Positions 1,683-60,375 of a stretch of DNA of 64,000 bases are shown here, one piece after another. The stretch is from Dictyostelium discoideum (Eukaryota). How positions within the stretch are numbered: position 1 is the first letter of the stretch; the number at the start of each line of letters is the position of its first letter. The notes under the pieces are model-generated. The model saw only the letters and a list, made by a program, of their open reading frames with translations. It was not told where the DNA came from and did no database searches. Where the stretch lies: contig CM000155.2 in NCBI GenBank assembly GCA_000004695.1, positions 3,232,001-3,296,000 on the forward strand, given 5' to 3'. Position numbers and translations under genes: made by a program.

Positions 1683-2520
1683 ATATTAAATATGATTTTT
1701 TTTTAGATCATATAAAATAAAAAAAAGTATATAAAAAAAAAAAAAAAAAAAAAAAAAAACTTTTTGTTTAAACACTAAATGATCATTAGTTTTTTAAATA
1801 TTTATTCTATTAAATAATAAACTGGTTATATACTATCAAATTTTTTTTTTTTAACGATACATAAATAATAAATAACTATAATATCAAATAAAAAAAATTT
1901 AATGATGCATTGGGTAATATCGAAAAAAATTTAAACAAAGATGCATTGAATTGGGAAGAAAAATTAACTATTAGTGATTCAGATAGTAGTGACAGTGATC
2001 CAGATACACCAATACAGGGACTTATACCAGAAAATTAACCAAAAACCACAAAAACAGTTAAACCAGTTGCAAATTAATAAACAAATAAATAAAAAAAAAA
2101 TAAATAAATAAATAAATAAAATAAAAAAAAAAAAAAAAATAAAAAAAATACAAATAACATACTAATAAATATTATTTAACGAAGTTACTATCTCTTCCAC
2201 AAAATATAAACGTAGATTTGAAAATTTCAATGAAAATGATGGTTGCTTAAAAGAGTTAATAGAAAAAGAAATTATAATTCAAAAAAATAGAAAGATTAAT
2301 TTATTGGATATTGAATTCAAACAGTATTTTAAAATACCCTGATAAATAATTAGGATACATAAATACATTTAAGCCTAAGGAAATAAATAGAAGGTAGTTT
2401 GGTCAGTGGATGAAATAATAGAACAAGAAATTAAAAATATTATGACCAATTATAATAAAAAATGATTTTTAAATAAAAAATTAAAATAAACTAACTATTT
2501 AAAGTTTGTATTTTTATTTG

Positions 2521-2621
2521 TAGCTTTTTTTTGAATTGGATAACGCAATTATTAGTTGCTTCTCCTTGAGATGCTAGATCTTATTTTATTTGTAGTTTTT
2601 TACAGATAAAAGAGGGGTTAG

Positions 2622-2630
<9 letters not shown>
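2521..2630 (+). repeat. ~100-bp repeat (copy A) ending in gaggggttagtttac followed by a 36-nt poly-T. A second copy lies upstream of the other tRNA gene (59825-59925) in the same orientation relative to the tRNA.
   Basis: ~85% identity between 2535-2630 and the reverse complement of 59825-59925 (ataacgcaattattagttgctyctccttgagatgctagatct...aaaagaggggttagtttac). Confidence 0.75.
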
Positions 2631-2667
<37 letters not shown>

Positions 2668-2949
2668 GGTTCAAATTTTGAATTGTATTATTACTTTTGA
2701 TTAAAACATCTTTTTTGTCCAAATTTTTTATTATATCATCAGCTTCATGATTGATGTTAATGACATATTTGAATTGTTTTTTTTTTATTTGAGTTTTATC
2801 CACAATTTCACTTATTTTTTGTAGGCATTTGTGTTGCTTAATATTTGTGGTGTTGTTTGTAATTTTCATCTTATTTTCTTTCTATTTTTATTTAACTTAA
2901 CCCAGAATTTTAACTTTTTTAAGTTAATCAGAAAATTTCCTTAAGTTCC

Positions 2950-2982
<33 letters not shown>

Positions 2983-3026
2983 TTTGTAGCCAAATTGATG
3001 TAAATTTTTAAAATTTCATCAAAAAT

Positions 3027-3099
3027 GCCTGGATGGCTCAGTAGGCAGAGCGAGCGGCTGTTAACCGCTAGGTCCATGGTTCGATCCCATGTCTAGGCG
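3027..3099 (+). tRNA. tRNA-Asn (anticodon GTT).
   Basis: Cloverleaf: acceptor GCCTGGA/TCTAGGC, D-arm GCTC...GAGC, anticodon stem AGCGG/CCGCT with loop CTGTTAA, T-arm CATGG-TTCGATC-CCATG, discriminator G. Confidence 0.9.
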
Positions 3100-3132
3100 A
3101 TACTTTTCTATGAGAATAGAATTAGATCGCAG

Positions 3133-3143
3133 GTTCAATTCTA
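3133..3143 (+). promoter_or_regulatory. External B box (gGTTCAATTC), 34 nt downstream of tRNA-Asn.
   Basis: Match to the B-box consensus GGTTCGANTCC outside the tRNA body. Dictyostelium tRNA genes are known to carry such ex-B boxes. Confidence 0.6.
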
Positions 3144-3365
3144 TCATTGGAATGGAAAAAAATATTATTTATTAAATAAAAGTATTTATAATTGCTTATT
3201 TCCTTTAATGGATAAACTGTGATTTATTAATTTTTATAATTAGAAAAAAAAAAAAAAAAAAAGAAAGGTTTTTAAAACAGTTTAAAACTTGTAATTTAAT
3301 AAATTTATTTATTTATTTATTTAATGTTATGATTTCAAATCAAGTAATTAGTAACACTGAAATTA

Positions 3366-4304
3366 CTAATTATAACGATTTGCATGACCATAACCTTTAT
3401 TATGACCAGCAGTAAAAGTTTTTAAAGTATAAATATACTTTTTTAAATGTGAATGATTTGGATATTGTTGTTCAAGTTTAGTTGAATATTTGTCTACTTT
3501 AATAATATATTTATTTAATAGACCAACACAATATTTTAAAGCTAAGTCAATTGAACCAAGTTGAATTGCTCTAACTTTAACAAAGTTTGTTAATAAAATT
3601 TCATTGATTTCCATTTTGAATGAACCACAATCATTGATCATTAAATTACAAAGTTCAAAATATTTAAAGAATTTTTTGAAATTTTTTGATTCTCTAATTT
3701 CATTCTCAACATATAAAGTTGAAGTACAAGAGGAAGCAGTAATTGTCATACCGAAATCACCATGTCTTGAATTGAAATAATCTTCAATGGAAAGTGATGA
3801 ATTTAATGATTTATATTTATTGGTTTTAATGGCACTTCTACTCCAATATTCAAAATCTCTAATTAATAAATCAACAGATTCTTTAACACCAACTCTATAG
3901 TATTCATCAAATAATCTCCAAATTTCACGACCAAATGGATCATGACTCTTACTTGATCTATCCATTAAATTATCCACATAATCCTCTTCATAATTACGTG
4001 ATTCATATATGTAATCATCTAAAATGAAAAGAAAATCCAACAATTTTGAATTTACCATATATTCATCCTTTTCACCCAATGGAAAATTCAAAGCAGCAAT
4101 TTTACCAATTTCATTCTTTTTTACATAATTCACAGCATTTTCATAGTTTTGAAAAAATTGTTTAACATATTCCATTTCTTGATTTTCAAAATCTTTATCA
4201 AATGGACTACTTTTAAAATCCCAAGGAAGAGTATACTTTGGAATTCTAATTTCTTGATCCAAAAATTGATTTTTATCCCAAGTAAATTTTATATCATAAT
4301 CCAT
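3366..4304 (-). CDS. Class I (microbial-type) terpene synthase, 312 aa, single exon.
   Basis: Aspartate-rich motif ILDDYIYE (DDxxD/E). NSE/DTE motif NDCGSFKME ((N,D)Dxx(S,T)xxxE). RY pair near the C-terminus (NRYN). Size and architecture fit Dictyostelium TPS genes. Confidence 0.85.
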   Translation of the reverse strand: MDYDIKFTWDKNQFLDQEIRIPKYTLPWDFKSSPFDKDFENQEMEYVKQFFQNYENAVNYVKKNEIGKIAALNFPLGEKDEYMVNSKLLDFLFILDDYIYESRNYEEDYVDNLMDRSSKSHDPFGREIWRLFDEYYRVGVKESVDLLIRDFEYWSRSAIKTNKYKSLNSSLSIEDYFNSRHGDFGMTITASSCTSTLYVENEIRESKNFKKFFKYFELCNLMINDCGSFKMEINEILLTNFVKVRAIQLGSIDLALKYCVGLLNKYIIKVDKYSTKLEQQYPNHSHLKKYIYTLKTFTAGHNKGYGHANRYN

Positions 4305-4945: not shown

Positions 4946-4988
4946 TATATTAATTTTTTTTTTTTTGGAATGATATAATTTAAAGAAA

Positions 4989-5480
4989 ATGATTTTATTA
5001 ACACTTTTATATTTAATTATTTTTTATATTATAATAGATTTTATAAAAAAAAATTATAAAACAAAAAATCAATTACCATCACCATTAGGAATTGCATTAC
5101 CAATTATTGGTCATTTACATTTATTACGTACCGATCCATATAAAACATTAGCTAAAGCATCGAAAAAAACAGAACATGGTATTTTAAAATGTTGGAATGG
5201 TGAGCATTTAATGGTTGTAGTTGATAATCCATCAATAATTAAACAAATGTATGTAAATACAAATAATTTTACAGATAGACCACAAACCAAAGTATTTGAA
5301 ATCATTTCAAGAAATTATAAAAATAGTGGTTTTGCAAATGGTGAAAAATGGAAACATCTCAGAGGTTTATATGCACCAAGTTTTACAAAAATTAAATCAA
5401 GACCACATGAAAATATAATTTTAAAATATGTAAATTTTGAAATTAAATCTTTAAAAAATCATGCAATTACAAATTCAATT
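4989..5480 (+). CDS. Cytochrome P450, exon 1 of 2 (164 codons; membrane anchor and Pro-rich hinge LPSPLGIALPIIGHLHLL). Donor caattg|GTAAGT, phase 0.
   Basis: Typical P450 N-terminus. GTAAGT sits directly after codon 164. The ORF otherwise runs into C10/T-rich junk. Confidence 0.85.
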
Positions 5481-5587
5481 GTAAGTTTGACCCCCCCCCC
5501 CCTTTTTTTTATTTATTTTTAAATTTTAATTAATAAATCATTATTAACTTTTTCTTTTTTATTTTCTATTAATAATAAAATAAATAG

Positions 5588-6571
5588 TATAATCCATTTT
5601 TAATTGAAAATATTAATTCATTTGGTACAAAAGTTATTACAGAAATTATATTTGGTAGAGAGTTTAGTGAAAATGAAGTTTACTCATTAATTGGACCAAT
5701 GAATAAATTATTTGGTATATTGGATACACCATTTCCATCAGAGAGTATATCATTTTTAAAACCATTTTATAGAAGATCTTATAAAGAATGTGATAAACAA
5801 TGTGAAGAATTATTTAAATTGGTTGAAAAAGTTTATGATGATCATTTATTGAATCTAGACAAAGACAACCCAAAAGATGTAATGGATGTAATGATTGTTG
5901 AAACTGATTTCAAAGAAAAGGATCATGTAATTTGTATATGTTGTGATTTATTAATGGGTACAAAAGATACATTCAATACAATTGTTTTATGGTTTTTTGT
6001 ATTAATGATAAATTATCAAGATGTGCAATTGAAGGGATATCAAGAGATAATCAAGGTTTTGGAATGCACAGGTCGAGATCATGTAACAATTGAAGATATC
6101 GATAAATTACCATACATTGATGGAATTATTAAAGAAATCTCAAGAATTCATCCAGCAGGTCCTTTATCAGTACCAAGAACTGCAATCAATGATATAATGA
6201 TCAATGGTTATTTCATTCCAAAAGGTTGTCATGTTTTTCAAAATACTTATGGTGCAGTTTATAATTATATGAAAGAATCTGATGAACCTTGTAAAATGAA
6301 ACCAGAAAGATGGATTGAAAATGAAAAATTAAGAAAAGATGGTAAATTAGACCCAACTAATGATTTAGCATTGATTTCATTACCTTTTTCAAGCGGAATT
6401 AGAAATTGTCCTGGTGTTGGTTTTGCAGAGTATGAATTATTCTTATTATTTTCAAATATCATTTTAAATTTTCATTTATCAAGTCCAAATAATCTAAAAC
6501 TCAATGAAAGTGGTCATTTTGGTCTTACAATGAAACCATTTCCATTTTTAGTTGATTTAAAATTAAGATAA
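5588..6571 (+). CDS. Cytochrome P450, exon 2 of 2 (327 codons; EXXR = EISR, PERW, heme loop FSSGIRNCPG). The total protein is about 491 aa.
   Basis: Acceptor aaatAG at 5586-5587, then the frame is open from 5588 (YNPFLIENINSFG...). Canonical FxxGxRxCxG cysteine ligand motif. TAA stop at 6569-6571. Confidence 0.85.
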   Translation, partial: YNPFLIENINSFGTKVITEIIFGREFSENEVYSLIGPMNKLFGILDTPFPSESISFLKPFYRRSYKECDKQCEELFKLVEKVYDDHLLNLDKDNPKDVMDVMIVETDFKEKDHVICICCDLLMGTKDTFNTIVLWFFVLMINYQDVQLKGYQEIIKVLECTGRDHVTIEDIDKLPYIDGIIKEISRIHPAGPLSVPRTAINDIMINGYFIPKGCHVFQNTYGAVYNYMKESDEPCKMKPERWIENEKLRKDGKLDPTNDLALISLPFSSGIRNCPGVGFAEYELFLLFSNIILNFHLSSPNNLKLNESGHFGLTMKPFPFLVDLKLR

Positions 6572-7530: not shown

Positions 7531-7889
7531 GAGGTAGTAGTTTTATATTTTTAGCAGAACATCCAATGAGAACTTCAACAAAATGTATTGAAAATAAATT
7601 TATAAATCATAAATTTGAAGGTGATGAAAATTCAAAAATGGTTTGGCCAATTTCAGATTATAGTGAAGAAGGTAAAAGAGTAACTAATTGGGCTGGATCA
7701 AGTGGAATTATTAAATATCATTATACAATTGAAACTTATGTAAACACTTTAATTAAAGTAGGTTTTAAAATTGATTATCTAGGTGAATTAAATCTTGTAG
7801 AAAGACAATTACAATTTAGTAATTCTGGTGATATATCTATAGAAGCAAATAGACCATTTACACTATTTATTAAAGTGTCAAAAAATTAA
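6981..7889 (+). CDS. Class I SAM-dependent methyltransferase, paralog 1 (302 aa). Contains N14 and ~N40 Asn-tract insertions.
   Basis: Motif I VIDLGCGNGWF (GxGxG), post-I acidic IGVDIS, motif II FDFAFSS. 85-90% identical to the ORF at 9196-9987 outside the Asn tracts. Confidence 0.8.
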
Positions 7890-8642
7890 TAAAAAAAAAA
7901 AAAAAATAAAAAAAAAAAGTTAAAAAAGTAAATAATTTAAATTTAATAATAAATAATTAATAAAAAATAAAAATAAATGTAAATTTCATTTCATTATCAC
8001 AAAAATAAAATATATACGTTATTTTATTAATTTAAAAATTATTGTACATGTTGTGCCAAGAACTTTTATTAGAAAAATAAGATGAAATAAAATAAAATGA
8101 TCTTTATTTTATAATTTTCTTTTTAAATTTTTATTATTATTAAAATTATGAATTTTAATAATAAAATATTCAATCGACATTAATAAGTCCACGTGGTTTT
8201 TACCCACGTGGGGTGAGAAAAGTTTAATTATATAAATTTTGATAATACAAGATTTTATTGCAATAATCCAATTATAGTATTTTGATAATAAATAATTAAA
8301 TTGCATTATTCGACTAATTAATTAAATTATTTTCAATTTTATTTTTTATTTAATTTTAAATACAACATATTTAAAACTGGTTATCTTTAAAAAAAAAATA
8401 AAAAAATATTAATAGTTTTATAGTGTTTTTAAAAAAAAAAAAAAAAAATTTGGACGGATAATTGTGAAAAATTTGGACGGATAATGGTGAAAAAATAAGG
8501 ATAATCAAAAAAAACCCTTTTAATACAAAGATGGAAAAAGGGAAAACATATTTTTTAAAACTATGGAATTATCATAATGTTATTATTTCATGGATAAGGA
8601 TAATCAAAAAAAACCCTTTTAATTCAAAGATGGAAAAAGGGA

Positions 8643-59424: not shown

Positions 59425-59594
59425 TTTATATTTTTTGAAAATGCACAATAAAACTTAATAAAAATAAAGAACATACAAATTTTTATAATCTTATTTAAAA
59501 ACTGAGTTGAATTTTTATTTTATTTCTTACCAGAGTACTTAAAAGGCCTGAGGTCAATTTAATAAAACTAATTTTGAGAATTGTTTTAAGTATA

Positions 59595-59605
59595 GAATCG
59601 AACCC
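59595..59605 (-). promoter_or_regulatory. External B box (GGGTTCGATTC on the minus strand), 29 nt downstream of tRNA-Glu.
   Basis: B-box consensus match outside the tRNA body. Confidence 0.6.
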
Positions 59606-59633
59606 TCGACTAATATCAGTTAGTTTGAAAAAG

Positions 59634-59705
59634 CTCCCCATTCGGGAATCGAACCCGAGGTACCAGTGTGAAAGACTAGAGTGTTACCGACTACACCAAT
59701 GAGGA
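59634..59705 (-). tRNA. tRNA-Glu (anticodon TTC).
   Basis: Minus-strand cloverleaf: acceptor TCCTCAT/ATGGGGA, D-arm GTGT...ACAC, anticodon stem CTAGT/ACTGG with loop CTTTCAC, T-arm TCGGG-TTCGATT-CCCGA. Confidence 0.85.
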
Positions 59706-59824
59706 TTTGGTTGAAACTTTGTTTTCAATAATTTAATAAATTGGTTTTTTCTGAGATCGAAAAAACAAAAAAGATGTTTTAATCAAAAGTAATAATACAA
59801 TTCAAAATTTGAAACAAAAAAAAA

Positions 59825-59925
59825 AGTAAACTAACCCCTCTTTTAGAGACCCTGTAAATAAACTACAAATAAACTGAGATCTAGCATCTCAAGGAGGAGC
59901 AACTAATAATTGCGTTATTTCAAAA
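59825..59925 (-). repeat. ~100-bp repeat (copy B), 120 bp upstream of tRNA-Glu in the same relative orientation as copy A is to tRNA-Asn.
   Basis: See 2521-2630. Confidence 0.75.
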
Positions 59926-60375
59926 ATTAAAGGTTTAATTAGAATTTTAACACATTAATATAAAAATTCGAAATAGAGTATTTTTTTTTTTTTTGAACAA
60001 TTTCTTAAAGAAATTAATCAAATTTTAAAAACAATTTTTTTCGTTCCATCTATTTTTAAAACAATTCTTTTTTTTATCAGAATTTAAAAATTTACTTTTA
60101 ATTATTTTAGATTAATGAATTATTCATTGCCTATTTGAATTATTTGAAAAATAAGTTGTTTAAAATCAATGGGTCATTTTATTTTATTTTATTTTATTTT
60201 TTCTTTTGTATTCTTTTCTTTTCTTTAATTTTTTTTTTTTTTTTTTCTATCTTTAAAAATAGATATTATTTGGATTTTGGTTTTTTAAAAGATTGTTCGT
60301 TTTTCAATAAATGTAAAAATAATACTGTTTGGGAAATAATGGGACAGTTATTTCAATATAAGGGTTATATATAAT

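Follow-up and report, generated by a model that had tools for sequence, protein, structure and literature searches.

Probable 5'-truncated remnants of the retrotransposon TRE5-A upstream of two tRNA genes in Dictyostelium discoideum

Two tRNA genes lie near opposite ends of a window of the Dictyostelium discoideum genome, by which we mean the whole 64-kb stretch analysed here (G+C = 21%), and a related repeat stands upstream of each of them. The locus raises the question of whether this repeat is the terminal fragment of a retroelement that targets tRNA genes or a previously unnoticed conserved module upstream of tRNA genes, and why a long homopolymer lies on what a sequence-only reading took to be the wrong side for a poly-A tail. 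Both tRNA genes predicted by that reading were confirmed with Rfam and ARAGORN:

3027-3099, plus strand: tRNA-Asn(GTT), the presumed target of copy A of the repeat (Rfam RF00005, 64.3 bits; ARAGORN 3026-3100)
59634-59705, minus strand: tRNA-Glu(TTC), the presumed target of copy B (Rfam RF00005, 56.3 bits; ARAGORN 59633-59705)

The shared element of about 100 bp is present close to where it had been placed, in the same orientation relative to the tRNA gene in both cases, and its reported identity of about 85% agrees with the 86 of 100 alignment columns (4 mismatches, 10 gap columns) that are identical between 2533-2626 in copy A and 59826-59921 on the opposite strand in copy B. Within-window BLAST with the low-complexity filter on gave E = 3e-30 for this pair, and equal-sized flanks, used as a control, reached just 47-51% identity per column; chance similarity of the two copies was rejected. 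The distances given earlier, about 360 bp for copy A and 120 bp for copy B, also hold when measured from the same points, with 360 nt from the homopolymer end at 2666 to the start of tRNA-Asn and 121 nt from the gtaaac at 59826 to tRNA-Glu. The homopolymer of copy A, given as T36, is in fact T40 (2627-2666), and it does not end the element: beyond it, 2667-2718 in copy A and 59815-59765 in copy B (51 bp in B) are identical at 50 of 52 positions (E 2.6e-21). Since similarity resumes past it, the homopolymer is internal to the repeat, whose other end is a short oligo-A, seen as T8 on the plus strand at 2525-2532 in copy A and as A5 at 59922-59926 in copy B. Copy A runs on toward tRNA-Asn to about 2981, a part that has no counterpart in copy B. 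Comparisons were made by local alignment and by BLAST with the dust filter, as an unfiltered search of the whole window was swamped by A/T-rich low complexity. Further similarity past the 3' ends (2413-2521 in copy A, 60055-59950 in copy B) was dismissed as AT-rich noise, with the control at 51% per column. BLAST found neither additional B- or C-module copies nor ORF2 sequence in the window.

To name the repeat, a genomic element and published landmarks were used. The reference is a locus in D. discoideum assembly GCA_054883475.1 (L001), reached via the DNA around a match (P0002) to an open reading frame of copy A. It comprises, in order, a 444-aa ORF1, a 1047-aa ORF2 with an RVT_1 domain, an A37 run, a second B-module that repeats the segment holding the ORF1 start, a C-module of 134 nt ending in GCGTTATCCAATTC, and an oligo-A of A11. 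TRE5-A.1 has been described with the layout AB-ORF1/ORF2-BC, in which a 290-bp B-module is duplicated into the 3' UTR and a C-module of 134-137 bp forms the 3' end (PMC3159450). L001 was identified as TRE5-A because its layout and the length of its C-module match the published ones, and no tRNA gene was found within its 16.5-kb locus. Additionally, a second locus (L002) shows the ORF2 loss of TRE5-A.2 and a 67-bp deletion at the BC junction (72 bp published), with about 80-90 nt of C-module left; that it carries published TRE5-A.2 features validates the reference. A full-text literature search with C-module and ORF1 sequence strings returned no match.

Both L001 (1-8366) and a D. cf. discoideum locus, L003 (7441-12356), contain tandem arrangements that read ORF2, A-run, B, ORF1, ORF2, A-run, B, C, in which an upstream ORF2 is joined via a B-module to a complete downstream unit. 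The two ORF2 copies of L001 are 100% identical over 2996 nt. B-module recombination, template switching, and collapse or expansion during assembly are possible origins of these tandems.

Copy A, which occupies 2525-2981 with its sense on the minus strand, consists of an A-run, a B-module, a C-module and an A8 tail, flanked by a target-site duplication. Its features, from the tRNA-distal to the tRNA-proximal side, are as follows:

2511-2524, minus strand: tRNA-distal target-site duplication (plus strand TTTTTATTTGTAGC, sense GCTACAAATAAAAA), an exact 14-mer found again at 2977-2990
2525-2532, minus strand: oligo(A) tail, A8 on the sense strand, directly after the last C-module base
2533-2671, minus strand: C-module of 139 nt with an internal A40 at 2627-2666, aligning to the 134-nt C-module of L001
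2672-2953, minus strand: B-module of 282 nt, by homology to the L001 B-module, with the duplicated ORF1 start (ATG at 2869)
2954-2981, minus strand: 5' A-run, A28 on the sense strand, at the 5' junction
2977-2990, minus strand: tRNA-proximal target-site duplication, an exact 14-bp repeat of 2511-2524

The whole insert aligns, in its sense orientation, to the 3' B and C region of L001 directly after ORF2 (7889-8355; E 1e-131), and its B-module part also aligns to the 5' B-module of L001 at the ORF1 start (2998-3322; E 3e-96); an isolated L001 B-module matches 2889-2695 of copy A at 87.6%. The part that had been reported from sequence inspection is the C-module. The A8 tail lines up with the A11 tail of L001 and with the tails of the L002 and L003 copies. 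The 5' A-run has its counterpart in the A37 between the ORF2 stop and the B-module of L001, and in L003 a counterpart lies between A-module and B-module. An ORF of 83 aa (2618-2869, minus strand) starts with MKITNNTTNIKQHK, as does the 444-aa ORF1 of L001, retains only the first 66 codons of ORF1, and enters the A40 tract as poly-lysine; the only matches to its first 68 residues are short "hypothetical proteins" of D. discoideum, 76-89% identical.

The last 5 bases of the A28 run overlap the proximal duplication, and 36 nt separate that duplication from the tRNA-Asn start at 3027; unambiguous copy A sequence ends 50 nt from the tRNA gene. A shared non-homopolymer 14-mer occurred in 0.17% of random window-pair trials of comparable size and spacing, and published target-site duplications of TRE5-A measure 10-16 bp (PMC9012585). 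The same insertion is found in GCA_054883475.1 at a locus (L004) that is 99.6% identical over 6.9 kb, which indicates that it is not recent. Copy A also carries a 15-bp deletion.

Compared with L001 and L003, copy A is rearranged over roughly 45 nt in the 5' part of its B-module (about 2895-2944): two adjoining segments, the reverse complements of AAGTTAATCAGAAAATTTCC and of CCAGATTTTTAACTT, each appear inverted in place. The region is quasi-palindromic and includes a 20-nt exact match on the opposite strand. As the rearrangement is also present in L004, from a second assembly, it is not an assembly error.

Copy B spans 59765-59926 on the plus strand and retains only the B-module end, followed by the C-module and an A5 tail:

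59765-59811, plus strand: final 47 nt of the B-module; 49 of 49 positions agree with copy A 2718-2670
59812-59921, plus strand: C-module of 110 nt with an internal A10 at 59816-59825, by alignment to copy A and L001
59922-59926, plus strand: oligo(A) tail, A5, following the C-module

Copy B matches L001 8167-8352 with E 3e-54, and its B-module end is 97.8% identical to both B-modules of L001. It is truncated at its 5' side about 59 nt from the start of tRNA-Glu (59705), and its C-module has lost 4 nt (CCAA) close to the 3' end. No recognisable target-site duplication emerged when its flanks were searched with and without gaps. An extension of its homology to about 59753, which would bring the 5' end to 47 nt from the tRNA gene, was based on a few A-rich matches only and was not adopted.

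These comparisons also explain the homopolymer. In L001 the C-module opens with AAAC-A19-GTAAAC, and a second tract, A20, lies midway along it; the host factor CbfA footprints in vitro on two tracts of 14-22 T in the C-module (PMC2661138), and A19 and A20 sit where these two tracts lie. Judged from its place in the alignments, the homopolymer following gtttac is no poly-A tail; it is the first of the two oligo(dA)·oligo(dT) tracts described for the C-module. The apparent oddity of its position arose because the continuing homology past it had been missed; the tract is internal, and it is the tRNA-distal end that carries the real oligo-A tail. The first tract measures A40 in copy A, A33 at the same locus in L004, A19 in L001 and A10 in copy B, its length having drifted between copies or strains. 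At the copy A locus, the plus strand reads T40 in the window and T33 in L004, and the adjoining bases are GGGTTC in the window and GTTTC in L004, copy B and L001; the difference could be either a slippage polymorphism or a sequencing error in a long homopolymer.

The second tract is A20 in L001 and A15 in L002, and both window copies have AAACTACAAATAAA instead. Its sites are 8255-8290 in L001, about 8200-8215 in L002, and 2575-2600 and 59850-59875 in the window. It is also absent from both D. cf. discoideum copies (L003), where mixed A/T/C sequence stands in its place, and it may have been gained late, in the TRE5-A lineage that is intact today.

The 3' end of the C-module offers a further landmark. 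The bases mutated by Siol et al., numbered from the C-module 3' end, were C38 and A35 in stem I and C26 and T15 in stem III (PMC3159450). T15, C26, A35 and C38 all match copy A at just one of 40 offsets tried, the one in which position 1 is 2533, the last base before the A8 tail, and copy B keeps the four bases in alignment, its 4-nt deletion lying 3' of them. Folding the last 58 nt of five copies to a consensus gives three stems, of which the first holds A35 and C38 and the third holds T15 and C26. Predicted stability of the 3' stem-loops was no better than that of shuffled sequences (z of about -1 at 22 °C), and neither compensatory changes nor covariation were found in these stems among the five copies; the predicted fold agrees with the published C-module model and adds no support to it.

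Taken together, copies A and B are almost certainly dead, 5'-truncated copies of TRE5-A (formerly DRE) inserted upstream of tRNA genes, an assignment made by comparing sequences with L001, itself named by its architecture, and with published landmarks. Both copies contain the B-to-C junction, to which copy A adds the duplicated ORF1 start codon, and among TREs a 3' B-module is specific to TRE5-A and missing from TRE5-B and TRE5-C (PMC3159450; PMC5006619). The suggestion that a tRNA-targeted retroelement left the shared sequence as its terminal fragment stands in the form of the TRE5-A 3' terminus, comprising the B-module end and the C-module, and falls for the other candidates it named, TRE3 and DGLT-A. 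TRE3 was rejected as the source in favour of the homology to TRE5-A. DGLT-A is an LTR retrotransposon whose solo LTRs likewise lie upstream of D. discoideum tRNA genes, at 13-33 bp (PMC5633606); a solo LTR was set apart, by description, from copies that stand at 50-59 nt, have oligo-A ends and share homology with an element carrying a LINE-like reverse transcriptase ORF2.

Position and orientation also follow TRE5-A. [quoted passage not shown] Among the 98 TRE5-A copies of the reference genome, distances are 37-211 bp upstream, with 59% within 47±3 (PMC5391098); copy A at 50 nt and copy B at about 59 nt are both inside this range, copy B lying outside the modal 47±3.

The copies thus resemble TRE5-A in their B-to-C junction, in a C-module with its landmark bases, internal oligo(dA) tract and short oligo-A tail, in their location about 50 bp upstream with the 5' end toward the tRNA gene and, for copy A only, in a 14-bp duplication. 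They differ from an intact element in having no A-module, ORF2 or second oligo(dA) tract and in not being mobile; copy A differs further by the expansion of its first tract to A40, the rearranged 5' B segment and the 15-bp deletion, and copy B by its 4-nt 3' deletion and the want of a recognisable duplication. In alignable parts the window copies are just 88-94% identical to L001. With TRE5-A.2, the non-autonomous deletion derivative exemplified by L002, they have B- and C-modules and targeting in common. TRE5-A.2, however, keeps the A-module and ORF1, and a B/C-junction deletion of about 72 bp removes its first oligo(dA) tract, whereas the window copies have an intact B/C junction and are missing the 5' half.

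Three other readings have to be weighed. Besides TRE5-A, D. discoideum has one more TRE5 with a terminal C-module, TRE5-C. It shares the target position upstream of tRNA genes, the last 87 bp of its C-module are 78% identical to the TRE5-A counterpart (PMC3159450), and the window copies do depart from L001 midway through the C-module, lacking the second A-tract there. A TRE5-C origin is nevertheless very improbable: the published description gives that element no 3' B-module (PMC3159450), whereas B is joined directly to C in both window copies, the B sequence so joined is 97.8-98% identical to the L001 B-modules, and the last 69 nt of the copy A C-module are 93-94% identical to those of the TRE5-A copies L001 and L002, well over 78%. 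A closer variant of the preferred reading takes copy A for a 5'-truncated, internally deleted A-B-C derivative that arose through recombination of the 5' and 3' B-modules. Such short elements exist: L003 carries at 3518-4133 (minus strand) an A-A-B-C derivative of TRE5-A, with a truncated B-module and two partial A-module-like repeats of a period of about 160 nt, located 47 nt upstream of a tRNA-Phe gene in the orientation of the window copies and flanked by a 13-bp duplication, TAATGAAACCTTT. An A-run precedes the B-module both after the A-module and after ORF2, so copy A fits either source, and nothing in the sequence separates them; copy A is a TRE5-A remnant in both cases. Target-primed reverse transcription most often ends in simple 5' truncation (PMC5391098), which makes the recombined derivative the unlikely one of the two sources.

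In the third reading the repeat is either a regulatory module of the host, conserved in front of tRNA genes, or what is left of a TRE5-A copy since co-opted, for example as a CbfA site or as an antisense promoter directed toward the tRNA gene. The C-module does have weak antisense promoter activity and does bind CbfA in vitro (PMC3159450; PMC2661138), antisense transcription would head toward the tRNA gene in both copies, and copy A has been kept in two D. discoideum assemblies. The same sequence, though, ends the full element L001 after its ORF2, with no tRNA gene in the locus, the 5' ends of the two copies differ, and copy A bears the hallmarks of insertion, including its 14-bp duplication, findings on which the conserved module offered by the sequence-only reading is rejected. 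Indels have also accumulated freely (the 15-bp deletion, 5-bp and 4-bp indels, tracts from A10 to A40), and with a TRE on 61% of D. discoideum tRNA genes (PMC5006619), co-occurrence needs no function. The discoverers of CbfA now regard its binding to the C-module as coincidental, and this third reading is extremely unlikely. It is likewise very doubtful that C-module remnants have been co-opted in the particular sense of recruiting CbfA or shaping nucleosome-free chromatin upstream of tRNA genes, by way of a long oligo(dA)·oligo(dT) tract (A40 in copy A) and a weak antisense promoter directed at the adjacent tRNA gene; if they had been, the tails of dead TRE5-A copies would influence Pol III genes or Pol II genes nearby.

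The preferred reading, TRE5-A insertion followed by loss of the 5' part, can be set against the known mobility of the element. The ORF1 protein of TRE5-A interacts with TFIIIB subunits, intact B boxes are needed for integration, integration proceeds by target-primed reverse transcription, in which 5' deletions are frequent and additional nucleotides occur at the 5' junction, and the RNA structure of the C-module is required (PMC3159450; PMC9012585; PMC5391098; PMC5006619). In the established mechanism, the ORF1 protein makes contact with TFIIIB on an active tRNA gene, and a nick is set about 47 bp upstream by the ORF2 endonuclease. Reverse transcription begins at the oligo-A and C-module 3' end of the RNA, where the stem-loops are required, and heads to the 5' end of the element, which finally faces the tRNA gene; incomplete reverse transcription or 5' joining leaves the 3' part alone. 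Copies A and B would have inserted independently, each about 50 bp upstream of its tRNA gene, copy A stopping in the A-run before the 3' B-module after about 450 nt and copy B 47 nt before the B-module end after about 160 nt. That both truncations arose during reverse transcription is inferred, and the 5' junction of copy A, in an A-run beside an A-rich target, suggests joining by microhomology. Neither copy can transpose, because both are without the A-module promoter, an intact ORF1 and an intact ORF2.

Several neighbouring features were recorded. B-box-like motifs stand about 30 nt downstream of tRNA-Asn and tRNA-Glu, at 3132-3142 on the plus strand (GGTTCAATTCT) and at 59594-59604 on the minus strand (GGTTCGATTCT), and resemble the 'external B box' of D. 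discoideum tRNA genes. The pattern GGTTCRAWTCY has 3 matches in the window, with 0.19 expected, the third being the internal B box of tRNA-Glu. The gene adjoining tRNA-Asn (3366-4304, minus strand) encodes a 312-aa terpene synthase (Pfam Terpene_syn_C_2) and is exact in GCA_054883475.1; its neighbour, at about 4981-6563 of the window (derived from L004 742-2324), encodes a 491-aa cytochrome P450, and the two may form a small terpenoid biosynthetic gene pair.

Short ORFs arise from the duplicated ORF1 start in the 3' B-module and enter the oligo(dA) tract as poly-lysine, and several of these have been deposited as D. discoideum hypothetical proteins (P0001-P0005), DDB_G0282561 and DDB_G0280833 among them. 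These entries are probably annotation artefacts, translated B-module and ORF1-start fragments of TRE5-A remnants rather than genes.

Knowledge of TRE5-A (DRE) and of its insertion at a specific position upstream of Dictyostelium tRNA genes goes back to the late 1980s. TRE5-A tails at tRNA genes are thus already known biology, and the observation made in this window is real and ordinary. The homopolymer that seemed odd is accounted for by the internal oligo(dA) tract of the C-module. The finding carries little significance beyond annotation, for which both loci can be masked as TRE5-A remnants.
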